A stretch of DNA of 54,578 nucleotides from Candidatus Saccharimonadales bacterium (GCA_041744275.1 JBGTLD010000025.1:1-54578), one strand, 5' to 3'. Counted from the first letter of the stretch, positions 2,730 through 54,578 are shown. Numbers and translations are program-made. The notes: generated by a model not told the origin, from the sequence alone.

Positions 2730-3614
2730 ATGACTGCCGTTACGACAAAGTTCAAGACATTCTGTAACGACATACTGATTTCTCCTGGAACTAAGAGTAA
2801 TGTATCTTATCGCTATAAACGCATAACTAAGCAGCTTAATGCAGATTTTTGGGGTTCAACTTCTGACACCGACCACAGCTTGTACGTTGGTTCTTACGGT
2901 AGAGATACGGCGATTCACGTTAGCGATATAGATATGCTTATGAAGCTGCCAGTTTCCTATTACCACGATTACGATAAGTATCAGGGCAACGGTCAGTCAG
3001 CACTCCTACAAGCGGTTAGAACTTCACTGCAAAAGACTTATAGCACTACACACCTTAAAGGCGATGGGCAGGTTGTTGTAGTTGCATTTGATGATGGGAT
3101 TAAGTTTGAAATACTTCCTTGTTTCCTCAACAAAGACAATCAAAGTTATACATATCCCGATACACACAACGGCGGCCAGTGGAAAGTTACAAACCCACGT
3201 CCTGAAATTAAAGCCATAAAAGACGCAAACGAAATATGGAACTACAATCTGAAACGGCTATGTAGAATGGCGAGAGCGTGGAAAGACCATTGGAGTGTAC
3301 CTATTGGTGGCTTGCTGATTGACACGTTAGCCTATAACTTTCTTTCACAATGGAGTAATCGGGATAAGACATACGAGTACTACGATTGGATGATGAGGGA
3401 CTTCTTTTTATACCTACATAACCAAAGCTCAACCCAGCAATACTGGCTAGCAATGGGGAGCGGACATCACGTATACCGTGAAGGTAACTTTGAATACAAG
3501 GCTCTAAGATGTTATAACATATCATTAGAAGCAATTACTTTTGAGTCAAATGGGCATAGCTGGTCAGCAAGTCAGAAGTGGAAAGAGATTTTTGGAACAA
3601 AGTTTAGTGGATAA
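2730..3614 (+). CDS. SMODS / CD-NTase-like nucleotidyltransferase
   Basis: Pol-beta NTase active-site pattern YVGSYGRDTAIHVSDIDMLMKLP (GS...DxD), plus a downstream acidic strand VVVAFDDGIKFEILP. The ATG directly abuts the previous TAA (TAAATG). Confidence 0.7.
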   Translation: MTAVTTKFKTFCNDILISPGTKSNVSYRYKRITKQLNADFWGSTSDTDHSLYVGSYGRDTAIHVSDIDMLMKLPVSYYHDYDKYQGNGQSALLQAVRTSLQKTYSTTHLKGDGQVVVVAFDDGIKFEILPCFLNKDNQSYTYPDTHNGGQWKVTNPRPEIKAIKDANEIWNYNLKRLCRMARAWKDHWSVPIGGLLIDTLAYNFLSQWSNRDKTYEYYDWMMRDFFLYLHNQSSTQQYWLAMGSGHHVYREGNFEYKALRCYNISLEAITFESNGHSWSASQKWKEIFGTKFSG

Positions 3615-3615
3615 A

Positions 3616-4188
3616 ATGGATTTAATTAACCTATCAGTAGTAAGACAATCTTTTGCGCAAACTGTATTTACACACCAAGTACAGGAGATAGCTGCTGCCA
3701 ATAAGCGTAAAAAGGTATTTTGGATTAAGTTATCTAATGTCCTGATTGTCAGCCTTGTACTGATATTGCTTGGCATACAGTCCCAAAGCCCTGATAATCC
3801 TATCTACTCTTACTTGGGTGCAGGTTTAACTGTAGCGGAGATAATCTTCCTAATCATTCAGCTTAATTTTGACTTTGAAGGTCAATCACTTCTACATAAA
3901 AATGCTGCACTAAAGTATATGGGCTTACGTGATAGGTACAGACTCTTGATAGCCGACATTATGAACAGCCAAGCACCAAAGAAAGAAATTATTGCTAGAC
4001 GTGATAGCTTGCAGAATGAATACCAGTCCATTTCAGACCTCTCACCAAATACGGGTAAAAAAGAATACGATGCAGCGCAAGTAGCTTTGAACAAAAAAGG
4101 ACTCGTAAAAAGCGAGCAGTTCACTTGGTCAGATAAAGAAATAGACCACTTTCTCCCAGAAGAGCTTCGTTTAACTCGTAAAAAGTAA
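3616..4188 (+). CDS. SLATT-like two-transmembrane effector protein
   Basis: The ATG lies 1 nt after the SMODS stop. Two hydrophobic helices (VFWIKLSNVLIVSLVLILLGI; YLGAGLTVAEIIFLIIQL) are followed by a helical tail (ALKYMGLRDRYRLLIADI..). This architecture and the adjacency to SMODS match the SLATT families. Confidence 0.6.
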   Translation: MDLINLSVVRQSFAQTVFTHQVQEIAAANKRKKVFWIKLSNVLIVSLVLILLGIQSQSPDNPIYSYLGAGLTVAEIIFLIIQLNFDFEGQSLLHKNAALKYMGLRDRYRLLIADIMNSQAPKKEIIARRDSLQNEYQSISDLSPNTGKKEYDAAQVALNKKGLVKSEQFTWSDKEIDHFLPEELRLTRKK

Positions 4189-9337: not shown

Positions 9338-9411
9338 GGCGCCTTGGCCGAGAAGTTAGGCAGCAGTCTGCAAAACTGCGTAGACGGGAGCGTTACCCGT
9401 AGGTGCCTCCA
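9338..9411 (+). tRNA. tRNA-Cys(GCA) with non-canonical T-loop, CCA encoded
   Basis: Hand fold: acceptor GGCGCCT/AGGTGCC (one G-U pair), U8, A14 and a 3-4 bp D-stem. Anticodon stem GCAGT/ACTGC with loop CUGCAAA. T-stem ACGGG/CCCGU. Discriminator U73 followed by CCA. The T-loop is AGCGUUA instead of UUCRANY, and the D-loop lacks GG. Confidence 0.6.
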
Positions 9412-21184: not shown

Positions 21185-24067
21185 ATGAAACGCTACAATC
21201 CGAAAGACGTCGAGCCAAAGTGGCAAAAAATCTGGGAAGAGTCACAGCTATACCGGGCTAATGATGTAAGCAAAAAACCGAAATACTACGCGCTCAGCTT
21301 TTTTCCATACCCGAGTGGTGTTGGACTTCACATTGGCCATACTCGAAACTTCACCATTACTGACGTTATTGCGCGCTACAAGAGGCTCCAAGGATATGAG
21401 GTACTTCACCCGATGGGCTGGGATAGCTTTGGGTTGCCAGCCGAAAACTTTGCGATCAAAACCGGCACGCCACCTCAAGTAACTACCAAACAAAACACCG
21501 ATAACTTCCGGGCACAAAGTAAACGACTTGGTCTGTCGATTGATTGGAGCCGTGAGTTTGGCTCAACTGATGCTGATTATTACAAATGGACGCAGTGGTT
21601 TTTCTTATTGCTCCATAAGCGTGATTTGGCGTATCGCAAAGAAAGCCTACAGTTTTGGTGTAATGTTTGTAAAACAGTGCTTGCGAATGAACAAGTCGTG
21701 AATGGCTGTTGCTGGCGCCACGAAGATATACCTGTGACGAAAAAGAATTTGCCGCAGTGGTTCTTTAAGATAACCAACTATGCAGATAGGTTGGCACAAG
21801 ATCTAGATAGTCTTGACTGGCCCGAGGGTATTAAAGCCATGCAACGCAACTGGATCGGCAAAAGTACTGGTGCTGAAGTAGATTTCCAGATTGTGGACTC
21901 AAACGAAAAGCTACGAGTTTTTACGACAAGACCAGACACGTTATACGGTGCGACATACATGGTTGTTGCTCCAGAACATCCTTTACTGAAGGAAATAACT
22001 ACTTCTGAACAAAGGACGAGCGTTGATAGCTACGTCGCAGACGCAATAACGAAGACCGACATTGATCGCATGGACGACTCACGAGAAAAAACCGGCGTAT
22101 TTACGGGCGCTTATGCGGTAAATCCGGTTAATAAAGAACATATCCCAATATGGGTAGCAGATTATGTATTGGCGGGTTATGGTACCGGCGCGATCATGGC
22201 GGTACCGGCACACGATGAACGTGATCATGAGTTCGCGGTTCAATATTCACTGCCTATTGTTCGGGTTGTAGAGCCTACTGCAGGCGAAGCCACTGGCGAC
22301 GACACTCATAAAGAATCTGTTTTTGTGGCGTTACGAAACCCTGCGAATAACACTGTTCTTGTGCTGGACTGGGGTCCACGTCAAGAACGATTCGGTGGTA
22401 AGATGCTGATTGGTGGAGGCGTAGAGGGCGACGAAAGTCACCAAACTACCGCAGAAAGAGAAATTGTAGAAGAAACAGGTTACAAAAACCTTACATTTGT
22501 GAAAGAGACTGACTACAAAGGTCACGGTTATTTCTACTCAAACACGAAGCACAAAAACATGCATGTGAGTGGCAAGGGCTTGTTATTTGATTTGATAGAC
22601 GAAGAGCAGGCAGCTACGAACCTGGATGAAGGTGAAAAGAATAAATTTACCATCGCTTGGGAGCCAATAGAAAAAGTTGCCAACTTGCTAGATGATGGCG
22701 TGCACGAAGCGATGTATCGAGATTTGGTACTTGGCGAGTGCTATCACGACGAAGGTTTGATGGTGAATTCTGGGGAGTATAGCGGTATGAGTTCTAGTGA
22801 CGTCCGCGAAAAGATTGTCGTTGAACTGAATGCGCGTGGAAACGGGGAAGAGAAGATAAACTTTCGGATTCGTGACTGGTTAATAAGTCGCCAGCGCTAC
22901 TGGGGGGCTCCCATCCCGATTATTCACTGTGAAAAATGTGGCACGGTACCGGTGCCTGAAGAACAGTTACCGGTTGTATTACCTGAGCTTGAAGATTTTC
23001 AGCCAAAAGATGACGGCCGTTCACCGCTCGCACATATTGATGAGTGGGTGAACGTCGACTGTCCTGAGTGTAGCGGTCCGGCAACTCGTGAGACAGACAC
23101 CATGGATGGTTTTGCGTGCAGTAGCTGGTATTTTTTGCGGTTTACAGATCCGCACAATGACTCAGTTGCGTTTGGCCGTGAGCTTGCTGAAACATGGATG
23201 CCGGTTGATATGTATGTTGGCGGCGCAGAACATGCGGTAATGCACTTGCTGTACGCCCGGATGTGGACAAAAGTCATGCACGACGTTGGGCTTATTAGTT
23301 TTGATGAGCCATTTAAAGCACTCCGTAATCAAGGCATGTTACTCGCAGAAGACGGAGAGAAAATTAGCAAAAGCAAAGGCAACGATATCAGGCCTGAAGA
23401 AATCATTGACAACGGCTATGGCGCTGATGCGTTGAGGCTCATTGTGTTATTTCTTGCGCCTTATAGTCAGTCAACTCCGTGGAGTAATGAAGGTTTGGGC
23501 GGCGTTTACCGGTTCTTGCAGCGTGCTTGGACAATTACAAACGAATACATAGATGCCAGCGAGCCAACATCTGATACACAATCCTCAGAACTTCTCGTAA
23601 CCCGAAGTAAAGCCGTAAAGAAAGTCACTGAAGATCTTGAAGATATGAGTTTCAACACCGCGATTGCAGCTATGATGGAGTACGTTAACGAGCTCTATAA
23701 ACTCAAGCTTAATATTGCATTCAGCGATACTGCTTGGAAATCAGCAATAGAGGCGCTTGTACTCATGCTTGCGCCGTTTGCGCCGCACATGACTGAGGAG
23801 CTTTGGCAACAGTTAGGGAATAAAACATCAGTACACACTGCTGATTGGCCATCGTGGGACGATCAATTACTTGCTACGGACACAGTCATTGTTGTGGTGC
23901 AGGTAAATGGGAAGGTTCGGGCTGAAATAGAAATAGACAAAAACATGCCTAAGGATGACGCACTGAAGCTAGCATTACAAAACGAAAAAGTGGCCAGCTT
24001 TATAGCTGACCACCCAGTCAAGAAATCTATTTATGTTCCCGGCCGAATCATCAATTTCGTGATCTAG
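21185..24067 (+). CDS. leuS: leucyl-tRNA synthetase with inserted Nudix domain
   Basis: HIGH (HIGHTRN), the CP1 editing region (TTRPDTLYGATY.., AVPAHDERDHEF) and KMSKS (KISKSKGN). At 960 aa it is about 100-150 aa longer than typical. The extra segment at 22277-22753 carries a Nudix box. Confidence 0.95.
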   Translation: MKRYNPKDVEPKWQKIWEESQLYRANDVSKKPKYYALSFFPYPSGVGLHIGHTRNFTITDVIARYKRLQGYEVLHPMGWDSFGLPAENFAIKTGTPPQVTTKQNTDNFRAQSKRLGLSIDWSREFGSTDADYYKWTQWFFLLLHKRDLAYRKESLQFWCNVCKTVLANEQVVNGCCWRHEDIPVTKKNLPQWFFKITNYADRLAQDLDSLDWPEGIKAMQRNWIGKSTGAEVDFQIVDSNEKLRVFTTRPDTLYGATYMVVAPEHPLLKEITTSEQRTSVDSYVADAITKTDIDRMDDSREKTGVFTGAYAVNPVNKEHIPIWVADYVLAGYGTGAIMAVPAHDERDHEFAVQYSLPIVRVVEPTAGEATGDDTHKESVFVALRNPANNTVLVLDWGPRQERFGGKMLIGGGVEGDESHQTTAEREIVEETGYKNLTFVKETDYKGHGYFYSNTKHKNMHVSGKGLLFDLIDEEQAATNLDEGEKNKFTIAWEPIEKVANLLDDGVHEAMYRDLVLGECYHDEGLMVNSGEYSGMSSSDVREKIVVELNARGNGEEKINFRIRDWLISRQRYWGAPIPIIHCEKCGTVPVPEEQLPVVLPELEDFQPKDDGRSPLAHIDEWVNVDCPECSGPATRETDTMDGFACSSWYFLRFTDPHNDSVAFGRELAETWMPVDMYVGGAEHAVMHLLYARMWTKVMHDVGLISFDEPFKALRNQGMLLAEDGEKISKSKGNDIRPEEIIDNGYGADALRLIVLFLAPYSQSTPWSNEGLGGVYRFLQRAWTITNEYIDASEPTSDTQSSELLVTRSKAVKKVTEDLEDMSFNTAIAAMMEYVNELYKLKLNIAFSDTAWKSAIEALVLMLAPFAPHMTEELWQQLGNKTSVHTADWPSWDDQLLATDTVIVVVQVNGKVRAEIEIDKNMPKDDALKLALQNEKVASFIADHPVKKSIYVPGRIINFVI

Positions 24068-28654: not shown

Positions 28655-29035
28655 ATGTTTTCAATCAAACCAGTATTTGCACATTGTGATCTACCATGCG
28701 GAGTCTATAATCCACTTCAAGCACGTATCGAAGCAGAATCAATTCATAAGATTTTGTCTGAGAAACTAGACAGCCTTGACGATCACAATAAGACACGAGC
28801 GGTCATTATTAAAGAAGAACGAGCAGAGCTCGTAAAGCACCACCTTTGGGTGCTATGGACTGACTACTTTAAGCCCGAGCATCTTGAAAAACATCCCAAT
28901 ATTCACGAGCTTTTTTGGAAGGCAACGAAACAAGCGGGGAGTATTAAGAAGACTATCGATCCAACTGAGTCTCAAAAGCTACTCGACATGATAGATGAGA
29001 TCTCGGAAGTGTTTAACGCAACTAAAACGGGGTAA
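28655..29035 (+). CDS. sodN: nickel superoxide dismutase precursor
   Basis: A 9-residue leader followed by the Ni-hook HCDLPCGVYNP. GAGGAG RBS. Confidence 0.9.
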   Translation: MFSIKPVFAHCDLPCGVYNPLQARIEAESIHKILSEKLDSLDDHNKTRAVIIKEERAELVKHHLWVLWTDYFKPEHLEKHPNIHELFWKATKQAGSIKKTIDPTESQKLLDMIDEISEVFNATKTG

Positions 29036-37953: not shown

Positions 37954-39075
37954 CTACGCATTCGGGCTCCCGTTCCTGGTGTTGGGGCATTTTTTCTGAC
38001 ATTGCTTCCAAAATGACATGAATGATTGGTACGGTTTATTTGGTATGCCTGGAAAAAGTTTTGGTACGGTATCAGCCTGGATGTTCCACTCCCGAGTGTA
38101 TATATGCTGCATGGTCGTTGCTTTCTCTTGATTGATATTCAGTGACTCTACACTGCCAATATGAATTTGCATGCCAGGTATATCTAATGCGAGGTTCACG
38201 ATAAAATCAGTAACCTTCTCACTTATAGGCCATAACTCAAACCATTTTGGTTCAAGAACCAGGACTCTATTACCGTCCTTACCTGCGTGCCAATTTGGGT
38301 TAATCCACCATGGATGATACAAATATGTGTGCTTCGTAGAGTCTACTAGTGCCGGTGCTACGTCAGGTTTTTTCCACGTAAATGCAGCTTCACACCGAGA
38401 AGTAAGCTTTTCTGGGACGGGCATTGTGGCAAGCTCGTCATATGAATGGTCAATAATTGTGTTGCTCTGCGTTGAGCAAGCAAATTCGTTAATGTTACTT
38501 TGCGAGGGCAGATATTTTTTAGAAGAAAACGTTCCTGCTACCCATTGCCATGAAAGGCTATTAGACGCTACATCACCGTCTAGAAGGTGATAGTACATCC
38601 ATTTTGAGGGCTGCCACCAATGTGTTTGAGCGATATTGCAAACAAGCCCCGCGATCCATAAGCGCTCATGATTATGTAGATAACCTGTTTCATAAAACGA
38701 CTCGATCGCATTATCGATATGGTTAATACCAGTTTCTGCACTCTGTACGGATTGTGGTAATTGCATTGATACCACACGTTCTTGAGTTCGTTTAATGTCT
38801 TTATATATAGCATCTCCACGCATAGCCCATTCATGCTGCCAATATTCTCTCCAGGCAAGTTCAAAAATTAGCTTTTGTGACTTTTCATGCCCATATTTCT
38901 CAACAACAAAATCTCTAACTTCTGGTAATGTAAGCGAACCTCTTGTTATGTAAGGGGATAGCATCGTGCTTTCACCAACATAGTTGCGTCGTGAACTATA
39001 GTATTGGGGTTCTACTAAAGCGAGTCTCGCGCGTGCTGCACTGTGGCTTGTAGGAAATTCTAAAACTACTCCCAT
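37954..39075 (-). CDS. photolyase/cryptochrome-related FAD-binding-domain protein with atypical domain order
   Basis: LSPYITRGSLT, ELAWREYW, TGYLHNHERLW and SNSLSWQWVAGT are photolyase C-terminal helical-domain motifs. Here they lie in the N-terminal two-thirds of the protein and are followed by an extra region of about 150 aa. Confidence 0.65.
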   Translation of the reverse strand: MGVVLEFPTSHSAARARLALVEPQYYSSRRNYVGESTMLSPYITRGSLTLPEVRDFVVEKYGHEKSQKLIFELAWREYWQHEWAMRGDAIYKDIKRTQERVVSMQLPQSVQSAETGINHIDNAIESFYETGYLHNHERLWIAGLVCNIAQTHWWQPSKWMYYHLLDGDVASNSLSWQWVAGTFSSKKYLPSQSNINEFACSTQSNTIIDHSYDELATMPVPEKLTSRCEAAFTWKKPDVAPALVDSTKHTYLYHPWWINPNWHAGKDGNRVLVLEPKWFELWPISEKVTDFIVNLALDIPGMQIHIGSVESLNINQEKATTMQHIYTREWNIQADTVPKLFPGIPNKPYQSFMSFWKQCQKKCPNTRNGSPNA

Positions 39076-45487: not shown

Positions 45488-46405
45488 ATGAAAAAAAGCA
45501 AACAAAAAAACAGTGAGGGTACGTCTGCAGCCTTTGTTTTGTTTGGCCTCATATGTCTTGGACTGCTTGTCGCAGTGTTACTGAGCGGAAAAGACATAGC
45601 ACTTTTTAATCCGAAAGGTGTTATTGCGCAGGAACAATATAGCTTGATGCTCTATTCAATGGCAATAATGCTCCTAATTGCCGTTCCGGCTGTAGCGCTC
45701 TTGTACTACTTTGGCTGGAAATACAGAGAGACTAATACAAAGTCTATGTATAGCCCTAATATGCGTCAGGGGAAACTGTTTGAATTTGGTTTGTGGGCAA
45801 TCCCAAGTTTTTTTATGATTGTCCTTGCATTCATAATGATACCTGCAACGCATAGACTTGAGCCACAAAAGGCTATTGCGTCCGACAACGAAGAGATTAC
45901 TATTCAGGTTATTGCGTTACGCTGGAAGTGGCTCTTTGTGTACCCTGAGCAAAATATAGCAAGTGTAAATTTTGTTCAGATTCCGGTTGATACGCCAGTC
46001 AGATTTGAATTGACAGCAGACGAAACGCCCAAGAGCTCTTTTTGGGTACCACACCTTGGCGGTCAACTATATGCAATGACTGGTCATGTGAACCCACTGT
46101 ATCTTATGGCTGAGGACGTCGGGGATTATCCAGGTAGCTCTGCCGAGATAAACGGAGCTGGATATGCAGGTATGAAGTTTACGGCTCGTGCCACAACAGA
46201 AGCTGACTTCAATAAATGGGTGCGTGACACACAAAAATCATCTAATCTTTTAGACCCTGCGGAATATGAAAATCTTTTGATTCCTTCCGAAAGAAACTCA
46301 TTCGCAACGTATTCATTAGACTATCCAGATCTGTATGCTAAAATGCTTATGAAATACGCAGGTTCGCATAGTCACCAACCACAGATATACCATACGGAAC
46401 ACTAA
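45488..46405 (+). CDS. cyoA: cytochrome o (bo3-type) quinol oxidase subunit II
   Basis: Two N-terminal TM helices plus a cupredoxin fold without CuA ligands (..FWVPHLGGQLYAMTG..). It sits directly upstream of cyoB. Confidence 0.85.
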   Translation: MKKSKQKNSEGTSAAFVLFGLICLGLLVAVLLSGKDIALFNPKGVIAQEQYSLMLYSMAIMLLIAVPAVALLYYFGWKYRETNTKSMYSPNMRQGKLFEFGLWAIPSFFMIVLAFIMIPATHRLEPQKAIASDNEEITIQVIALRWKWLFVYPEQNIASVNFVQIPVDTPVRFELTADETPKSSFWVPHLGGQLYAMTGHVNPLYLMAEDVGDYPGSSAEINGAGYAGMKFTARATTEADFNKWVRDTQKSSNLLDPAEYENLLIPSERNSFATYSLDYPDLYAKMLMKYAGSHSHQPQIYHTEH

Positions 46406-48492
46406 TGAAAGAATTACTACTTGGAAAATTGGACTGGAGTGCTTTACCGCATGAATGGTTCACAATTGCCGGCACAATACTCACGATAATCGCATCGATA
46501 TTTTTTATTGTGGCGATGTCTCGTGCAAAGCGCTGGAAGTGGCTATGGAATGACTGGCTGACGACTGTTGATCCGAAAAAAATTGGAATCATGTATTTCC
46601 TTGTGGGTGGTTTCATGCTTCTTCGTGGAGGGTTAGATGCGGTCATGATTTGGCTGCAGCAAGCGGTTGCTGTTGACAGCTCACAGGGATACTTGACCGC
46701 TGATCACTTCCAGCAGATATTCACTGCACACGGCAATATTATGGTCTTTTTTGTGGCCATGGCCTTTGTTTTTGGCCTTATAAATTACATTGTACCGCTA
46801 CAAATTGGTGCACGCGATCTGGCATCTCCTTTTTTGAACACCTTGGGCTTCTGGCTATACGTAGCTGGCGTTATTATGGTCAATATATTTTTCTTGTTTG
46901 GCGGCGAATATGCTGCTACCGGCTGGCTAGCAATCGCACCTTTGAGCGGGCCCGAATTTAGCCCTGGTGTTGGTGTTGATTATTTAATATGGAGTCTACA
47001 GATTTCAGGTATTGGAACAACTTTAGGCGCGATTAACTTTATTATGACAATACTGAAGATGCGTGCGCCTGGGATGACTCTCATGAAAATGCCTTTGTTT
47101 ACCTGGGGTTCCTTGTGTAGTATGGTCATGGCCGTTACGGTATTTCCACTCCTCACAATGACACTTTTCTTACTGTTTTTTGACCGTTATATAGGCACAA
47201 ACTTCTTCACCATTAGTGGGGGCGGTAATCCTATGATGTACACGAATCTTATATGGATGTGGGGCCATCCTGAGGTGTATATTCTGATGCTTCCATCATT
47301 TGGGGTGTTCTCGGAAATAGTCACAACCTTTAGCCGTAAACGTATTGCAAGTTACGTATCGAATGTAGCGGGTATGATTGGCGTTTCGTTGCTTGCGCTT
47401 TTGGTATGGCTTCACCATTTCTTTACAATGGGAGCTGGTGCGAACGTAAACGCCTTCTTTGGGGTTATGACAATGATAATTGCCATACCTACTGGAGTAC
47501 TGGTGTTTACCTGGATTGCCACAATGTACAAGGGCCGAATACGGTTCGATACACCGATGCTCTGGTTTATGGGTTTTATTGGCACGTTTACAGTCGGTGG
47601 TTTGACAGGCGTACTCTTAGCCATACCGCCAGTTGATTTCCAGCTTCATAACAGCTTATTTTTGGTAGCACACTTCCATACTATGGTTATCGGTGGCGTA
47701 CTGTTCGGTATTTTTGCAGGATTATCATACTGGTTCCCAAAAATGACTGGTGTGAAATTAAACGAGCGTATTGGTAAATACGCATTTTGGACTTGGCTTG
47801 TTGGTTTTGTTATGGCGTTTACTCCGCTCTACATACTTGGCCTTATGGGGGCTACGAGAAGACTTGATAACTACGATTCATCTACTGGGTGGCAGCCGTT
47901 TTTTATCATGGCGTTCATTGGAGGGTTGATCATTTGTCTTGGAGTAATTTTGCAAATAATACAAATTATCGCGAGTTTGATCCAGAAGAGGCATCTACTC
48001 GATACAACTGGCGATCCGTGGGATGGGCGAACGCTCGAATGGGCCACGCCGTCACCGCCACCATTTTATAACTTTGATGTCATTCCAAAAGTTCGGTCTC
48101 GTGAAGCATTTTGGGAAATGAAGCATTTACACCATCCTAAATTAGTATACGAAGACATTCTTATGCCAAAAAACACAGCTTCCGGCATCTATATATCTGG
48201 TTTTGCCTTCTTAGCTGGCTTTGGCTTTGTGTGGCATATCACGTGGCTTATCATCGTGTCATTGATTGGTATTGTTGTGTGTGCAATTATGCGCACATTC
48301 AACGAAGATACAGAGTATGTTTTGACTGCTGCTGAGGTAGAAAAAATCGAGCAAGCCAGAAAGAAAAAAATGCAAGTCGCACTCTCAAATAAAGACAAGG
48401 GCTCTGGTGAAGATATGAAACTACAAGAGTTTATTGTGATTGTGTACAAGTGGGCTGTGAACGCTATAAGGAAGAGACAATGGCGCACTTAG
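46405..48492 (+). CDS. cyoB: cytochrome o quinol oxidase subunit I
   Basis: Heme-copper oxidase motifs (WMWGHPEVYIL, HHFFTMG, HFHTMVIGG). 695 aa. Confidence 0.95.
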   Translation: MKELLLGKLDWSALPHEWFTIAGTILTIIASIFFIVAMSRAKRWKWLWNDWLTTVDPKKIGIMYFLVGGFMLLRGGLDAVMIWLQQAVAVDSSQGYLTADHFQQIFTAHGNIMVFFVAMAFVFGLINYIVPLQIGARDLASPFLNTLGFWLYVAGVIMVNIFFLFGGEYAATGWLAIAPLSGPEFSPGVGVDYLIWSLQISGIGTTLGAINFIMTILKMRAPGMTLMKMPLFTWGSLCSMVMAVTVFPLLTMTLFLLFFDRYIGTNFFTISGGGNPMMYTNLIWMWGHPEVYILMLPSFGVFSEIVTTFSRKRIASYVSNVAGMIGVSLLALLVWLHHFFTMGAGANVNAFFGVMTMIIAIPTGVLVFTWIATMYKGRIRFDTPMLWFMGFIGTFTVGGLTGVLLAIPPVDFQLHNSLFLVAHFHTMVIGGVLFGIFAGLSYWFPKMTGVKLNERIGKYAFWTWLVGFVMAFTPLYILGLMGATRRLDNYDSSTGWQPFFIMAFIGGLIICLGVILQIIQIIASLIQKRHLLDTTGDPWDGRTLEWATPSPPPFYNFDVIPKVRSREAFWEMKHLHHPKLVYEDILMPKNTASGIYISGFAFLAGFGFVWHITWLIIVSLIGIVVCAIMRTFNEDTEYVLTAAEVEKIEQARKKKMQVALSNKDKGSGEDMKLQEFIVIVYKWAVNAIRKRQWRT

Positions 48493-49079
48493 CAAAACAT
48501 CACGGAGAAAGCCATGAAGAGGCAGCAAACGACCGAGTAATGTTTGGATTCTGGGTGTACCTCATGACCGACTTGTTAATGTTTGCCATACTTTTTGCCG
48601 TCTATGCAGTGCTTAGAAACAGCACAATGGGTGGTCCATCTGGTCGTGAATTGTTTGACTTATCGTTGGCGCTACAGGGTACGCTCGTGCTTCTTACGAG
48701 CAGTTTTACGTGTGGTGTGGGTATGATTGCTGCCCGTAAAGGCAAAGTCAATCAGACTTTGATCTGGTTTGGCATTACGTTTTTACTTGGTCTACTGTTC
48801 TTGGGGATCGAATATAAAGAATTTGCCGAACTCCTACACGAAGGCTTTACATGGCAAAGTAATGCGTTCTTATCATCGTTCTTTGTTCTTATAGGCACGC
48901 ATGGACTGCATATTATTTTCGGCCTACTCTGGCTGGGCATCACACTGGCATATGTAAAAGCTCGTGGTCTCACAAAACACATGGTTCGTAAGCTTGCGCT
49001 GCTGAGTTTGTTTTGGCACTTTTTAGATATTGTTTGGATATTTATCTTCACCATAGTCTACCTAGGGGCTTACGTATGA
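48480..49079 (+). CDS. cyoC: cytochrome o quinol oxidase subunit III
   Basis: ATG at 48480 with an AAGGAAG RBS, overlapping the end of cyoB by 13 nt. Five TM helices and FWHFLDIVWIFIF. Confidence 0.9.
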   Translation: MAHLAKHHGESHEEAANDRVMFGFWVYLMTDLLMFAILFAVYAVLRNSTMGGPSGRELFDLSLALQGTLVLLTSSFTCGVGMIAARKGKVNQTLIWFGITFLLGLLFLGIEYKEFAELLHEGFTWQSNAFLSSFFVLIGTHGLHIIFGLLWLGITLAYVKARGLTKHMVRKLALLSLFWHFLDIVWIFIFTIVYLGAYV

Positions 49080-49780
49080 GTTCAAAACACACTCACCAAA
49101 TCAAAAATCATGACGAACACGGAACCATAGGGTCTTACGTTACTGGTTATGTGCTGTCATTGATATTCACAGCAATCCCATACTACATGGTGGTCAACCA
49201 AGTTATTACTGGCACTGCGCTACTAGCAGTTATTTTGGCTATTGGTGTTTTACAGATGATTATCCAAATAGTTTTCTTCCTGCACCTAGGAAGAGGCCCA
49301 AAACCGCTCTACAACATTGTATTCTTCATCTCAACCATAGGTATTATATTGCTGGTTGTTGTTGGCTCACTTTGGATCATGCACCATCTTAATAAAAATA
49401 TGACACCCAGAGAAATGTCTACAAAACTGATAGAAAAAGAGGGCATATACCAAATAAACGGTCAAAAAACAGGCGCATGTCAGGGTGTTCACACAAAACA
49501 CAAAGTGTTTATTAGTGATGGCAGGGTGAGTCCTTTGTATACTGCAGCTAATGTGTGTGACAGGTTGTTGTTTATTAATCAAGACGGTTCAACCCGTGAA
49601 ATAGTTTTCGGAGTGCATCCCCAGCAAGAAACATATGCCGGTGAGTACCTACTGAGTGTCAGCAGGGGACGAAGCAGAACTGTAATATTAGGCAAAGAAG
49701 GCACGTATCAGTTCTACGACCGCCTCGATCCCTCAATAAAAGGCGTCTTTACAGTGTTACCGAGCAATGGTGATGAATAA
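49076..49780 (+). CDS. cyoD: cytochrome o quinol oxidase subunit IV fused to a C-terminal cupredoxin-like domain
   Basis: ATGA overlap with the cyoC stop. Residues 1 to about 118 are CyoD-like (GSYVTGYVLSLIFTAIPYY, three TM helices). Residues about 119-234 form a beta-rich extension. Confidence 0.85.
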   Translation: MSSKHTHQIKNHDEHGTIGSYVTGYVLSLIFTAIPYYMVVNQVITGTALLAVILAIGVLQMIIQIVFFLHLGRGPKPLYNIVFFISTIGIILLVVVGSLWIMHHLNKNMTPREMSTKLIEKEGIYQINGQKTGACQGVHTKHKVFISDGRVSPLYTAANVCDRLLFINQDGSTREIVFGVHPQQETYAGEYLLSVSRGRSRTVILGKEGTYQFYDRLDPSIKGVFTVLPSNGDE

Positions 49781-49794
49781 GGCCTGATTTACTT

Positions 49795-50253
49795 ATGTCG
49801 CAAACAAAAAGCGTTAGTCACTCCGTATTCGTACCTGCCCCTCAGGCAGATGTTTTTATTGCTGTGACCAATTGGGGTACGCAAAGTAAGTGGATTCCAT
49901 TCACCAAGGTTCAAGGGGTTGGCAAAGATTCGCATGTACTACACGGTAAGCTGGAGGCCTACACGGGTATTGGCCGCATAGGTTTTCTAGACACCATGAC
50001 CATCACGAAGTGGGATCCACCACACCACTGCGAAGTTGTTCATACGGGTAAATTTGTAAAGGGGTCTGGTCTGTTTGAAGTTTCACCAAACGCAAAAGGA
50101 TCAACGTTTACATGGACAGAGCATTTCGAAATGCCTTCCGGAATACCAGGAAACATACTATGGGCTGTACTATGGCTGCCCACTAAGTTAGGTCTAATAT
50201 TATCGATACATACCTTCTCGCGGCGGTTTAAGAAAATAAGCCAAGTGTCATAA
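49795..50253 (+). CDS. SRPBCC (START/polyketide cyclase-like) family protein
   Basis: VFVPAPQADVFIAVTNWGTQSKWIPF.. pattern. 152 aa. Confidence 0.6.
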   Translation: MSQTKSVSHSVFVPAPQADVFIAVTNWGTQSKWIPFTKVQGVGKDSHVLHGKLEAYTGIGRIGFLDTMTITKWDPPHHCEVVHTGKFVKGSGLFEVSPNAKGSTFTWTEHFEMPSGIPGNILWAVLWLPTKLGLILSIHTFSRRFKKISQVS

Positions 50254-50593: not shown

Positions 50594-51535
50594 TTACTTT
50601 TCTACAATTGGAGAAATCTTTGTTCCGAAAATTTTTGATACTTCTTCGGTATAACTTGCAATATTGTCTTTGAAATAATGTGGGTAAGCCTTTTGAATTT
50701 GCGCAACGAGAAAGTATCCAACTGCCATCATCGAGCCATAGTCAGCTCCATCAGGAAGGGGGATATGTAGTCGGTTCTCCCGCTTACCCCACGTAGTATT
50801 TTCATTGCCGAAACTAATAAACAGTTCGTTGGATGGTGCAACGGTAGTTGCGTGCGCGACATATTCATCGGTTTCAACATCTCGAGCTATGTTTCGACCA
50901 AAGAGCTCAATAAACTTTACCTGTAGCATTCTAATAATTCCCGAGAACTTAGCTGGTACTATTAGGTAGTATTTGTCGAACGTAGAAAAATCGGGATATG
51001 CTGCCCCTAACATGGTATCTTCTATGAAGCGCTTTATCATAGTCGGGTCTTCACCTGTAGAGCCGAGTATCATCCCTAGATACGTCGATGTATTGTACGT
51101 GTAGGGTTCACGATTTTTAGGAAATACGAATGCATTGTTTTCTTGAGTGGCATCTAATTCACTGTGAGCTGGGGACTCTGGTGTGTTTGTAATGAGCGTA
51201 ACGCGTTTTCCAAGCTCACGAGATTTCTTAGCAATTATAGGAGCGTGTTTGCCACCGGATGCAGATATGAGCACCACTCCGTCAATACTCTCAATTGTCT
51301 TTAGCTTTTCTTCAAAGTTACTTTCAGAAGCAAATAATGCAGCTGTTTTTTCAAACATGATACGACCGGTTGCTTCGGCATTACCTGACCCGACAATTAA
51401 AGGGTGTTTGTAAGCCGATACATCGATTTTTGGCAGTTTGTTTTCCTGAAATAATTCTAACGCTCCAAGTACTACAACATCTAAATTTGGCAATGTGGTG
51501 ATGTCAAAAGTATCTAACTTATTCATAATATCCAT
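50594..51535 (-). CDS. SIS (sugar isomerase)-like domain protein, tentative
   Basis: IVGSGNAEATG.. and ..VVLISASGGKHAPIIAKKSRELGKRVTLITN resemble SIS phosphosugar-binding motifs. Confidence 0.45.
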   Translation of the reverse strand: MDIMNKLDTFDITTLPNLDVVVLGALELFQENKLPKIDVSAYKHPLIVGSGNAEATGRIMFEKTAALFASESNFEEKLKTIESIDGVVLISASGGKHAPIIAKKSRELGKRVTLITNTPESPAHSELDATQENNAFVFPKNREPYTYNTSTYLGMILGSTGEDPTMIKRFIEDTMLGAAYPDFSTFDKYYLIVPAKFSGIIRMLQVKFIELFGRNIARDVETDEYVAHATTVAPSNELFISFGNENTTWGKRENRLHIPLPDGADYGSMMAVGYFLVAQIQKAYPHYFKDNIASYTEEVSKIFGTKISPIVEK

Positions 51536-51660: not shown

Positions 51661-51698
51661 ACGAATGATTGGTTGTCCTTAGTGTACGCTCTTCGCAA
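51661..51698 (+). repeat. cassette-junction repeat R1 (degenerate copy)
   Basis: ACGAATGATTGGTTGTCCTTAGTGTACGCTCTTCGCAA matches the R consensus at about 27 of 38 positions by eye. Confidence 0.55.
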
Positions 51699-51710
51699 AT
51701 TAATGCACCG

Positions 51711-52013
51711 TTAAGAGTGAATTTTCAAGGCTGCAATAATTAATATATCAACAATTAGCCAAAGTGCATTTGTAATTATCATAGGTGTGATCTTATGTAC
51801 AACGCCATAGGTAAAAAATAGGATCGCAAAAGCAGCAAAGCATATCCAGGATTAAAGAGATACACCAGCAACGTTTCCATTAAATACTTGTACTACCTGA
51901 GGAATGCCACTAAAGGGATACACAAAAGATGCTACAACTACAGTTTTATCGAAAAAATTAATGCGTTTCTTTTTGCTTATGTGAAAATGAAGTATGTGGT
52001 TGTGACGTGACAT
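51711..52013 (-). pseudogene. SemiSWEET / PQ-loop transporter interrupted by an in-frame TAA
   Basis: Translates as MSRHNHILHFHISKKKRINFFDKTVVVASFVYPFSGIPQVVQVFNGNVAGVSL*SWICFAAFAILFFTYGVVHKITPMIITNALWLIVDILIIAALKIHS. It has the PQ motif and three TM helices. The in-frame stop is at 51852-51854. Confidence 0.6.
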
Positions 52014-52073
52014 ATTTACTGCAAGTGTACACGCATATGCTTATAACTAAAAAACTTTTAAACACAAAACAAT

Positions 52074-52111
52074 GCTTATGCTTGGCTGCCCTTAGCGCAT
52101 GTACTTCGCAA
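52074..52111 (+). repeat. cassette-junction repeat R2
   Basis: GCTTATGCTTGGCTGCCCTTAGCGCATGTACTTCGCAA. Confidence 0.85.
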
Positions 52112-52187
52112 AAACATTATTCGAGCAGATGAATACTGTGATCAATCAGAATAAGTATATAATCACTATTTGAGATAGTTATATACT

Positions 52188-53294
52188 TCAGTCTTTGTTT
52201 CGCGAGTAGCTATACTTCACAGACTTTTCTAATTGCTCTTTTCTGATTTTTATTCCAAAATATGTAACTAGCATGAACATAAATGCTATCAGAATTCCGA
52301 TTATCATATTTCGGGAAGTGATGTCTGTAAAACTTGATAGGATCACAAAAACTGGTAACAAAGTAATAAAAATATCTCTAGGACTATAACGTTTTTTATA
52401 CTTTAATGAAATTCCATTACTATTGACCAATGAGTTTGCTTGTAATTCATTTTCAGAAGTAAAAATGTTTGAATCATTTAACTTACGGCCTATTTTATTA
52501 AGTAAATGCGATGTTGTTTCAAAGTAGGTTTCGTACCGCTCTTTTGATACAAGCGATTTTGGCCAATACAAATACAATTTATCTTTAATAATTTCAACAT
52601 CACATAAGTACGTACTTTCAAGTAAAGTAATCATCACATCTGGAGCGAGTACTGTTAACGCGCTAGTACTGTAGTTGTCAGGTGCATACAAATTAAAATA
52701 TTTATTAAAATCACCTTCAAGTTCTATCTTTTGGGACTCGTCAAAGTTAATCGGAAGTGTTGACAAGCCATCATTGCCAGTTTCTACTAATGAGTCAATA
52801 ACCATGTGCGGTAAATACCGCTTAAGTTCAACTTGCATAACTGCAATATTTTTATTTCTTGAATGCTTAAGATTAAAAAAAGTAAAAGCATATCCATCGA
52901 TTGATCCATGTACAGAGTGTGTTATCAATTGATCAGTAAAGTTCATAAATAATGAGCCGTTCAGTAAGATAGGATCAATTGTTGAAGGTTTTTGTAGTTC
53001 AAACGAATTATCAATTGAGAACTGACGTAATCCGTTATTAATACTCTTGTTGCGTTTGTATGATTGATAAAATCCAAAGCAGGTTAAGAGGGTGATGGGA
53101 ATGAAAGTAATAAACAAGAAATAAGCCCTTTGAGTAAACGAACCTACATCGACCATAATTACTAAGCATATGTACAATAGTAATAAAATAAGAGCGGCCA
53201 AAACGTTATTCCAACTAGCATCAAATATTTTTGATTTTGTATAAGGTAAATTATCGTAGTTGATGCCCAAGGCTTCGCCGTTAGTTTTTTCCAT
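52188..53294 (-). CDS. membrane protein, hypothetical (possibly DUF3137-like)
   Basis: Two N-terminal and two C-terminal TM helices. The central region FNKYFNLYAPDNYSTSALTVLAPDVMITLLE loosely resembles DUF3137. AT-rich. Confidence 0.55.
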   Translation of the reverse strand: MEKTNGEALGINYDNLPYTKSKIFDASWNNVLAALILLLLYICLVIMVDVGSFTQRAYFLFITFIPITLLTCFGFYQSYKRNKSINNGLRQFSIDNSFELQKPSTIDPILLNGSLFMNFTDQLITHSVHGSIDGYAFTFFNLKHSRNKNIAVMQVELKRYLPHMVIDSLVETGNDGLSTLPINFDESQKIELEGDFNKYFNLYAPDNYSTSALTVLAPDVMITLLESTYLCDVEIIKDKLYLYWPKSLVSKERYETYFETTSHLLNKIGRKLNDSNIFTSENELQANSLVNSNGISLKYKKRYSPRDIFITLLPVFVILSSFTDITSRNMIIGILIAFMFMLVTYFGIKIRKEQLEKSVKYSYSRNKD

Positions 53295-53341
53295 TATTAT
53301 TCAATTTTAAACCTGTAACGTCATTTTTTGCAAATAATACC

Positions 53342-53379
53342 GCTTATGTTTGGCTGCCCTTAGTGCATGTACTTCGCAA
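53342..53379 (+). repeat. cassette-junction repeat R3
   Basis: GCTTATGTTTGGCTGCCCTTAGTGCATGTACTTCGCAA. Confidence 0.85.
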
Positions 53380-53400
53380 CTCTCAGTTCAGTCTAAGTAA

Positions 53401-53874
53401 TCAATTTGTTCCTTCAAAATCTTGAAGAATTTTAAGATATTTCTTTTGTAAGTCGTCAGAGATTTGCGAGTGACGTAAAGGTTCCATCTCACCTTTATTC
53501 TCTACTATAGAATTGACTTCACCAAAATAAAAACCTTCAAGAGTCGCGACGAAAAGGTATGAAGGATTCCACGATTTAGCCATTCTTTTCCCATAACTTA
53601 AGGTAAATTTCGAATTCATGCGACGTAAGTACTTTACTTCGATAAGGTGGACTTTTTTAGTTTCTTGATTTATTACTGCAAAATCAGGGGCAGATCTTAA
53701 TGTCTCAATGACACCATTATCTTCTGGGTACCCATGCTGAACTAATTCAGGAATTATCTTTTCATATCCAAATTCTAGAACCGTAAAAGTCTTTGTCTCA
53801 CGGAGCATTTGAGCAAACACAGTTTCAGCTATCTTGCCTTTAACAAGATTTCGGGCAAATTCAAGGTTATTCAT
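53401..53874 (-). CDS. PD-(D/E)xK nuclease-fold protein
   Basis: GKIAETVFAQML.. helix, then ..APDFAVIN..KVHLIEVKY. The D and E-x-K spacing is typical of the restriction-endonuclease-like fold. Confidence 0.55.
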   Translation of the reverse strand: MNNLEFARNLVKGKIAETVFAQMLRETKTFTVLEFGYEKIIPELVQHGYPEDNGVIETLRSAPDFAVINQETKKVHLIEVKYLRRMNSKFTLSYGKRMAKSWNPSYLFVATLEGFYFGEVNSIVENKGEMEPLRHSQISDDLQKKYLKILQDFEGTN

Positions 53875-53902
53875 AAATGGATTGTATCATTTACTGTGAA
53901 AT

Positions 53903-53940
53903 GCTTATGCTTGGCTGCCCTTAGTGTCTGTACTTCGCAA
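53903..53940 (+). repeat. cassette-junction repeat R4
   Basis: GCTTATGCTTGGCTGCCCTTAGTGTCTGTACTTCGCAA. Confidence 0.85.
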
Positions 53941-53943
53941 CCT

Positions 53944-54393
53944 TTAGCTTCTCTGAAGCGTTATATTTGTAATTTCTTGACCCCGTTTATCAAATACAGA
54001 TCTTTCGTCGTTGCCTTCAAAAAAGCCTACAAGATACTCGCCTTTGTATAAACTTTCCCAGCTGGCAGTAAAGCCGTTTGTCTGCTTTTGAACTGGGTTT
54101 TGTTCGCGTGTAGTCCATTTTCCCGAGCCATGTAAGCTGAAGTTGACTGGCTCAACAAATGACCCGTCTGGGCTAATAGCGCTTAAGGTGCCCTTTGGCC
54201 AAGTGCCTTCCGGGTCTTCAATAATGAAAGTATAGTTCCATGCCTGTTCACCTGCCCCAGTAGTAATTGTTAGTATGTCACCAGCTTCAAGTTCAGATAA
54301 TCTGAGTTGCTCTAGTTGCTCACCGCTGCTTTGTAGTTGATCAATCATATGATTATAATCTCTTAGTTCATCTGTGGTTGCAAGCATAACCAA
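53944..54393 (-). CDS. hypothetical protein (about 147 aa)
   Basis: ORF; the likely start is the ATG at 54387 (MLATTDELRD..). No family recognised. Confidence 0.5.
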   Translation of the reverse strand: MVMLATTDELRDYNHMIDQLQSSGEQLEQLRLSELEAGDILTITTGAGEQAWNYTFIIEDPEGTWPKGTLSAISPDGSFVEPVNFSLHGSGKWTTREQNPVQKQTNGFTASWESLYKGEYLVGFFEGNDERSVFDKRGQEITNITLQRS

Positions 54394-54421
54394 ATAAGAT
54401 TCTTAATAGGGTTTCTATACT

Positions 54422-54453
54422 GCTTATGCTTGGCTGCCCTTAATGTCTGTACT
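54422..54453 (+). repeat. cassette-junction repeat R5 (3' end diverged)
   Basis: GCTTATGCTTGGCTGCCCTTAATGTCTGTACT, after which it diverges. Confidence 0.8.
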
Positions 54454-54578
54454 GAAACGATTAATTTAAAAGCTAAACACTTTACACACACTTGTAACCA
54501 TGAAATAGTATAAATATGAGCACCCACAAAAGTTCACCTGATCTAAATGATAATCAACCATGGCATGGAGAGCCAAGT

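Follow-up and report, generated by a model that had tools for sequence, protein, structure and literature searches.

Near one end of a 54,578-nt stretch of DNA from a Candidatus Saccharimonadales bacterium (GCA_041744275.1, JBGTLD010000025.1:1-54578; hereafter the window, meaning the stretch at its full length) lies an array of unrelated genes separated by copies of a conserved repeat. All genes flanking the copies are on the minus strand, and the repeat is described here in that gene sense. Five copies, numbered R5 to R1 along the direction of the genes, occur in a single orientation and span 2.8 kb; the other 51.7 kb of the 54.5-kb window contain none. The 16-nt core of the repeat, searched with up to three mismatches, gave five matches against 0.37 expected, a count reached by 0 of 100 shuffles, and an nhmmer profile built from 13 repeat copies of several genomes recovered precisely the same five sites (E 3.5e-15 to 5.5e-5), the next match having E = 5. 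The consensus reads aAAG-TTGCGAAGTAC-RTnnAC-TAAGGGCAGCCAAGCATAAGC-AnTAT. Conservation of a 38-bp repeat, as described in the initial annotation, was upheld, although the true unit is about 45 nt, as conservation extends 3-4 nt before and 5 nt after the 38-mer.

Mismatches are counted against the cross-genome consensus at its 32 specified positions. R4 (53903..53940, minus strand) and R2 (52074..52111, minus strand) have none and R3 (53342..53379, minus strand) has one. R5 (54422..54459, minus strand; placed by nhmmer at 54417-54453, E 1.6e-9), which comes first among the junction repeats in gene sense, has six mismatches, all in its first six bases, where CGTTTC is found instead, and its right part, AGTAC-AGACAT-TAAGGGCAGCCAAGCATAAGC, is intact, so that it looks like a hybrid end site. 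R1, the distal copy (51661..51698, minus strand; nhmmer E 5.5e-5), is degenerate, with eight mismatches; it retains the left arm TTGCGAAG, and its right part has decayed to 15/21 identical positions. The distances from stop codon to repeat are 3, 21, 76 and 12 nt (3 nt for R4; 12 nt for R1, after the SemiSWEET gene described below), and those from repeat to next start are 28, 28, 47, 60 and 125 nt (28 nt for R4, in this case to an ATG, with the -10-like box TGATACAAT between the two). The array is AT-rich, with a G+C content of 0.32-0.35 against 0.415 for the whole window. On all of these points, namely the five positions and their common orientation, the near-identity of R2-R4, the degeneration of R1 and one-sided divergence of R5, the short intergenic gaps and the base composition, the initial annotation proved accurate. 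It had also taken the array to run to the window edge, which is not what is found: past R5 only 119 nt of the window remain, and these hold the start of a divergent plus-strand open reading frame (ORF) and no continuation of the array.

The genes between the copies are unrelated, as had been claimed. The first cassette gene in gene sense (53944..54393, minus strand) encodes a 149-aa protein (147 aa if the start is the ATG at 54387) that is an ORFan, with no homologue but itself among 5.8 billion proteins. The second (53401..53874, minus strand) encodes a 157-aa protein whose assignment to the PD-(D/E)xK nuclease fold was borne out: residues P63-D64...E79-x-K81 are invariant across homologues, and Foldseek searches with an AlphaFold2 (AF2) model (predicted local distance difference test score, pLDDT, 85) matched solely PD-(D/E)xK nucleases (Hjc, RecU, BpuSI, PA-N). 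It has no match in Pfam, NCBIfam or PADLOC, and 775 homologues were found, the best 120 of which are 66-80% identical and include Patescibacteria and Bacteroidota. In other phyla, its close homologues lie in restriction, defence, conjugation or mobile-element neighbourhoods, with MmeI, Schlafen helicase/PIN and TraG/relaxase genes nearby. The protein belongs to a widespread and uncharacterised family, which is likely to be an unnamed one of mobile nucleases or defence proteins. The idea that this cassette moves as a unit with the repeat was rejected, as the homologues in other genomes have no flanking repeat. The third cassette gene (52188..53294, minus strand) encodes an unknown 368-aa protein with hydrophobic N- and C-terminal segments, and it is followed by a SemiSWEET/PQ-loop pseudogene (51711..52013, minus strand), which had been described as broken; it is, albeit through a single in-frame stop (51852-51854) and no frameshift. 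Look-ups of the three cassette proteins by exact sequence retrieved no record.

Two further genes flank the array on its distal side. A gene encoding a 313-aa protein (50594..51535, minus strand), which marks the distal border of the island, is conserved in Saccharibacteria, and its product has hundreds of homologues at 65-78% identity, the named ones being from Candidatus Saccharibacteria or other Patescibacteria. The label ‘SIS-like’ given to it earlier finds no confirmation in Pfam, and the gene belongs to the Saccharibacteria core and is not a cassette. Its usual place in relatives (L139-L143) is at the end of a pgl-gnd-zwf(-HAD) operon, a context that suggests a role as a sugar-phosphate isomerase; in the window it is detached and abuts the island. 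Beyond it, and convergent with the array, is an SRPBCC (Polyketide_cyc2) gene (49795..50253, plus strand), a homologue of which occupies the equivalent position beside the array of the related contig L012.

The repeat is found in other members of the lineage. A 21-mer scan of 185,579 species genomes produced a single match, in the Candidatus Saccharimonadales metagenome-assembled genome (MAG) L001, and a separate metagenome scan yielded 12 stretches carrying the repeat. Matches in L003 and L005 were dismissed as chance 20-mer matches in unrelated GC-rich DNA. Scan matches minus two duplicate pairs and one chance match, together with L001 and L144, constitute a set of nine independent contigs (L001, L004, L006, L007, L008/L013, L010, L011, L012, and L144). 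L144 was the only informative one among the genomic contexts of the closest 313-aa homologues (L139-L152), which mostly lack both tRNA-Gln and the repeat. All nine contigs are from Saccharimonadales and carry the same element with 0-2 mismatches, in 1-5 copies per contig, and 13 copies from these contigs and the window are near-invariant, varying freely only at positions 12, 14, and 15 and having sharp borders. Core proteins of the related contigs are 47-82% identical to those of the window in amino acid sequence. A core gene block is common to L007 and the window at this level of identity, and the L007 repeat equals the consensus exactly; since intergenic DNA at such a distance should be unalignable, either strong constraint or horizontal spread is indicated.

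Units between repeats usually contain a single gene and measure approximately 0.4-1.6 kb, and their genes almost always point the same way. In L012 they encode a NUDIX protein, two AAA_18 proteins, a small membrane protein, an Rce1-like protein, a haloacid dehalogenase (HAD) hydrolase and DUF6953, followed by SemiSWEET. No cargo protein is shared between the compared loci, all of which come from divergent genomes: copies are near-invariant and the genes between them wholly different. The island arrays are low in G+C, and their distal flanks have features in common, namely SemiSWEET and the convergent SRPBCC gene in the window and L012, and the 313-aa core gene in the window and L144. The L144 island (Candidatus Saccharibacteria MAG GCA_020427965.1, 1608-10945), which extends from tRNA-Gln to the 313-aa gene, encodes an inovirus-type Rep (PF23343) and a Schlafen AlbA_2 protein, and its content is entirely unlike that of the window at the same locus. 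A conserved intrinsic terminator, AAAGACTTCTTCGGAAGTCTTTTT, and a TGnTAnAAT box often come after the repeat in relatives, making up 85-100 nt of common sequence; the terminator and -10 box are present behind the repeat in L006, L008, L010, L012, and L013 and are missing behind R2-R4 of the window. A TGnTAnAAT box located about 7 nt ahead of an ATG with no Shine-Dalgarno sequence was seen in L006, L008, L012, and L013 (after the terminator) and in the window at 53875-53902, an arrangement suggestive of leaderless or near-leaderless transcripts.

The derivation of the repeat from tRNA-Gln, and the position of the arrays downstream of that gene, were overlooked in the initial annotation. On L001, L007, L010, L012, and L144, tRNA-Gln is the sole tRNA found, located on the strand of the repeat and 0.5-6.8 kb upstream of it. 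The 3' end of the L001 tRNA-Gln, ...CCCCAGCCA, is followed by AGCATAAGTGCAATG and then by the terminator AAAGACTTCTTCGGTAGTCTTTTT. A 14-mer, CAGCCAAGCATAAG, is common to the repeat and the tRNA-Gln end and trailer, and at many loci the repeat continues with the same trailer and terminator. In an alignment, the repeat extends from the tRNA-Gln T-loop (GTTCGAA, represented in the repeat by GTTGCGAA) to CCA and on into the trailer, with about five extra bases, and forms intermediate between the repeat and the tRNA-Gln end occur in L004, L011, and L012. Judged by sequence, the repeat is clearly homologous to the T-loop-to-CCA segment of tRNA-Gln plus its trailer, AGCATAAGC. True partial tRNA-Gln 3' fragments, which begin in or near the T-loop and run into trailer and terminator, are present at other island gene junctions in L004, L007, L010, L011, L012, and L013. 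The trailer is absent from the tRNAs of the window (Cys, Leu, and Ala). A tRNA-like RNA as the identity of the repeat was considered and discarded: its 3' part forms no T-arm, is 5-6 nt too long and matches no Rfam family.

When each site is classed by the sequence to the left and right of CAGCCA, all four combinations of arms are found around this fixed core, and breakpoints cluster on both sides of it. tRNA sequence to the left with trailer (B') to the right constitutes an empty site, seen in L001, and tRNA sequence to the left with unrelated sequence to the right a filled site, seen in L010, L012, and L144; the locus is thus empty in one contig and filled in three. Most copies have the repeat arm (P) on the left and trailer on the right and form internal or distal junctions. 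Hybrids combine P on the left with unrelated sequence on the right (L011-2287) or unrelated sequence on the left with B' on the right (three cases and R5 of the window). In L010 and L144, the island beyond the filled tRNA site closes with repeat arm, CAGCCA, and trailer (degenerate in L144), and in L012 the first insert closes with a partial tRNA-Gln fragment followed by trailer and terminator. This pattern of arms at the filled sites is that expected of DNA insertion through strand exchange within or adjacent to CAGCCA.

Independent support comes from two phage contigs in IMG/VR, L154 and L153. Each carries a copy of the tRNA-Gln(ctg) 3' end, 31-32 nt long and not a full tRNA, that is identical to the end of the tRNA in L010, L012, and L144. 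In L154 (8393-9386) 128 nt separate this copy from the gene for a tyrosine integrase (PF00589, E 2.8e-39), and in L153 (1125-2926) it is located approximately 1 kb from a gene for an integrase 40% identical to that of L154. Phages of the lineage thus possess integrases that use this tRNA end, and L154 and L153 probably represent temperate phages of Saccharibacteria with tRNA-Gln as their integration site. Both also encode holin/M23, SLT lysozyme, and YqaJ proteins and their own tRNA-Asp and tRNA-Asn.

Taken together, these observations are probably best explained if the repeats represent att-type sites that arose from the 3' end and trailer of tRNA-Gln, and the array belongs to an additive island seeded at tRNA-Gln and built by serial site-specific insertion of foreign DNA in small, mostly single-gene pieces. 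Strand exchange would occur in or next to CAGCCA, and the left arm, TTGCGAAGTAC-N6-TAAGGG, would be part of the inserted DNA. Each unit would then comprise AGCATAAGC, its own -10-like box, a gene, a stop codon, and the left arm, and would be inserted by a recombinase acting in trans, supplied by a phage, by a helper element or from elsewhere in the genome. Horizontal circulation of the elements, selection by the recombinase, or both, could account for the near-identity of the repeat across divergent genomes. Site-specific capture, which the initial annotation had proposed in an integron-like form, is retained as the best reading of the locus, while membership of the integrons is not: the locus is integron-like in layout, yet it is no integron, having a short unit with no attC fold and no integrase found among the tested ORFs or beside the related arrays.

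A number of points weigh against serial site-specific insertion at tRNA-Gln. No PF00589 match was obtained among 53 tested ORFs of the window, no recombinase was found within several kb of the related arrays (upstream sides of L001, L007, L008, L012, and L144 checked), tblastn with the phage integrase detected no remnants, and neither an integrase nor a replication module was seen inside the 45-mer arrays. The repeat has none of the dyad symmetry usual for the core sites of tyrosine or serine recombinases. Its left arm is absent from the viral, phage, and plasmid sequences searched, so that no free attP has come to light; in IMG/VR, searching with the right arm, both arms, and the 14-mer core returned no matches or chance matches only, and in phage and plasmid collections only a generic terminator hairpin was matched. 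The window itself holds no tRNA-Gln, its 119 nt upstream of R5 being those with the divergent ORF start, and the repeat would be unable to replace the acceptor stem of the tRNA and hence is not a simple displaced tRNA end. Nor is its extreme conservation explained by decay alone, and the variation in cargo was established between divergent genomes.

Insertion at tRNA-Gln leaves two possibilities for the unit of mobility. The ~45-mer may be the site of single-gene cassettes inserted by a trans-acting recombinase, or the units may be the trimmed remains of larger elements, by analogy with the tycheposon islands of Prochlorococcus. In favour of cassettes are the predominance of one gene per unit over more than a dozen units, the tidy packing, the units' own -10-like boxes, and the unusual conservation of the site; against them are the lack of a known enzyme, the lack of a known free form, and the absence of dyad symmetry. 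It is only tentatively suggested that Saccharimonadales have a hitherto undescribed, integron-like cassette system, in which small promoter-bearing single-gene circles with a ~45-bp site, conserved in sequence, non-palindromic, and evolved from the tRNA-Gln 3' end, would be inserted at tRNA-Gln or at resident sites by a recombinase encoded elsewhere, and would spread horizontally between divergent members of the lineage.

An alternative that dispenses with a dedicated recombinase is that the junction module of pseudo-tRNA end, trailer, terminator, and promoter drives capture and shuffling by homologous recombination, for instance after natural transformation. Such a process would resemble that proposed for the promoter early stem-loop (PeSL) cassettes, which flank single ORFans and form mini-circles (PMC2839356), and it would fit both the 85-100 nt common to the repeat, terminator, and TGnTAnAAT box in relatives and the failure to find a recombinase nearby. 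In the window, however, no more than about 45 nt are shared, a very short stretch for homologous recombination, and the terminator is missing or has decayed; similarity ends abruptly at its borders, the breakpoints cluster at CAGCCA and not spread along the repeat, and the homology to tRNA-Gln and the phage integrases targeting that tRNA would be left unexplained. This alternative is considered unlikely. Less likely again is a regulatory or RNA element (a 3' untranslated region, a tRNA-like processing signal or an operator) selected after each island gene, its resemblance to the tRNA-Gln trailer being incidental. Near-invariance across genomes with only 47-82% identity between core proteins, and a fixed place right after stop codons in gene sense, would be natural for such an element, but no stable or conserved structure is predicted on either strand (z-scores +0.3 to +1.8), no Rfam family is matched, and a consensus scan finds neither a sigma-70 promoter nor a terminator in the repeat. 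The repeat is also restricted to the island, and a regulatory element would not explain the hybrid sites, the partial tRNA fragments or the pairing of empty and filled sites. Sigma-54 and sigma-70 promoter readings of the repeat had been tried and set aside, the spacing being unfit by eye and the scan placing no promoter there.

Co-oriented and mostly single-gene units, heterogeneous cargo, and a repeat at each junction would all be compatible with a classical chromosomal integron, or with one of the clusters of attC sites lacking integron-integrases (CALINs), that is, a cassette array with no adjacent integrase, in which attC sites are recombined by IntI as folded single strands. That the locus is either of these is very improbable. 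At 38-45 nt the unit is short beside attC sites of about 57-141 nt, and it contains no inverted repeat: eight folds (four copies, both strands) gave z-scores of +0.27 to +1.77, every tested copy folding worse than its shuffles, in agreement with the earlier remark that the repeat is shorter than attC and without its imperfect palindrome. Conservation is of sequence and not of structure, the cassettes appear to bear their own -10-like boxes, and no intI was found in the 53 tested ORFs of the window, which ends 119 nt past R5, or in the related loci. There is equally little to recommend a generic dispersed repeat, of the repetitive extragenic palindromic (REP) or bacterial interspersed mosaic element (BIME) kind, or an ordinary promoter or terminator motif clustered by accident. 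The repeat is short, intergenic, and repeated, as such elements are, but it is not palindromic, all five of its copies in the window fall within 2.8 kb, and the related contigs hold 1-5 copies, with tRNA-Gln accounting for all tRNAs found on them. A genome-wide REP, promoter or terminator, which the initial annotation had named as grounds for refutation, is thus not what is seen, the repeat being confined to the array within the window and negative in the consensus scan.

Elsewhere in the window, a CBASS-like (cyclic oligonucleotide-based antiphage signalling system) defence pair is encoded at 2730-4188 (plus strand) by genes for a SMODS nucleotidyltransferase (PF18144, E 5e-54) and a SLATT_4 effector (PF18186) with two transmembrane segments. 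The leucyl-tRNA synthetase (21185-24067, plus strand) has a NUDIX domain (residues 375-511) inserted after its editing domain, and its L007 orthologue is 47% identical. ARAGORN calls a tRNA-Cys at 9338-9411 (plus strand), where the Rfam tRNA model is silent at its gathering score. A Ni-superoxide dismutase (28655-29035), a photolyase-like FAD protein (37954-39075), and a cyo-type quinol oxidase operon (45488-49780) together represent an oxygen-handling gene set in a genome of the Candidate Phyla Radiation (CPR).

CPR bacteria, Saccharibacteria among them, have tiny genomes, and how they acquire genes is little understood. The locus described here is a hot spot defined by sequence, since tRNA-Gln and the 45-bp signature can be searched for in any CPR assembly, and accessory genes accumulate at it singly; the three intact cassettes of the window encode an ORFan, a nuclease-fold protein, and an unknown membrane-like protein. 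Should the units move as single-gene cassettes, they would constitute a second and independently evolved answer to the integron problem, using a double-stranded, tRNA-derived site, and would also open a way towards genetic tools for bacteria that are otherwise intractable. If they are trimmed remains, the tRNA-seeded island model of streamlined marine cyanobacteria would extend to the CPR. Islands linked to tRNAs and containing partial-tRNA repeats are already known; the literature searched contained no report from a CPR bacterium of an array in which gene after gene is delimited by a derived, highly conserved pseudo-tRNA site.

Several known systems share features with the locus. Integron arrays and CALINs are likewise composed of co-oriented single-ORF cassettes with heterogeneous and often unknown cargo and one recombination-type repeat per junction. 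They differ in the folded, palindromic attC site and in IntI and attI, none of which was found here, where the site is conserved in sequence, derived from a tRNA 3' end and tied to tRNA-Gln, and the cassettes seem to own promoters. Arrays of integrative mobile elements exploiting Xer (IMEX) at dif, and the pdif modules of Acinetobacter plasmids, are also small, recombinase-free modules with short conserved sites whose enzyme is encoded elsewhere. The dif site is 28 bp long and consists of XerC and XerD arms around a 6-bp centre, the chromosomal copy being located at the terminus, and the two conserved blocks of the repeat around a variable hexamer give it a comparable 11-6-11-like layout. Its arms nevertheless bear no convincing likeness to those of XerC and XerD (4-6/11 matches per arm, by eye against the dif consensus), the inner CATAA/TTATG symmetry is absent, and the sites are direct repeats that do not alternate. 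Nor does G+C skew give any sign of a place at the terminus: the cumulative curve levels off at the array of the window, but the related loci show no consistent switch, and the idea was set aside.

In T4-type phages, PeSL promoter-terminator cassettes, which are short conserved regulatory modules, lie on either side of single ORFans within hyperplastic regions and permit modular shuffling by homologous recombination (PMC2839356). In relatives of the window the repeat is similarly joined to a terminator and -10 box, whereas PeSLs are unrelated to tRNA, the internal copies of the window are without a terminator, and the breakpoints point to one core. Integrative elements are known to accrete in tandem at tRNA genes, and many features are shared with the tRNA-seeded islands of Prochlorococcus, which are built by tycheposons and contain partial tRNA 3' att sites, most being without an intact element or integrase (bioRxiv 10.1101/2020.12.28.424599). 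As in those islands, the arrays lie directly downstream of a specific tRNA (here, in the relatives), partial tRNA 3' att sites are scattered through them, newcomers push older inserts distally, cargo varies between related genomes, and an intact element or integrase is mostly missing. The differences are that elements equipped with modules for integration and replication were not seen here, that the host belongs to the Saccharimonadales within the CPR and the target is tRNA-Gln, and that a site stands at nearly every gene junction, delimiting units of approximately 0.4-1.6 kb with mostly one gene, the dominant site being a derived 45-mer that is incompatible with a tRNA and better conserved than the core proteins.

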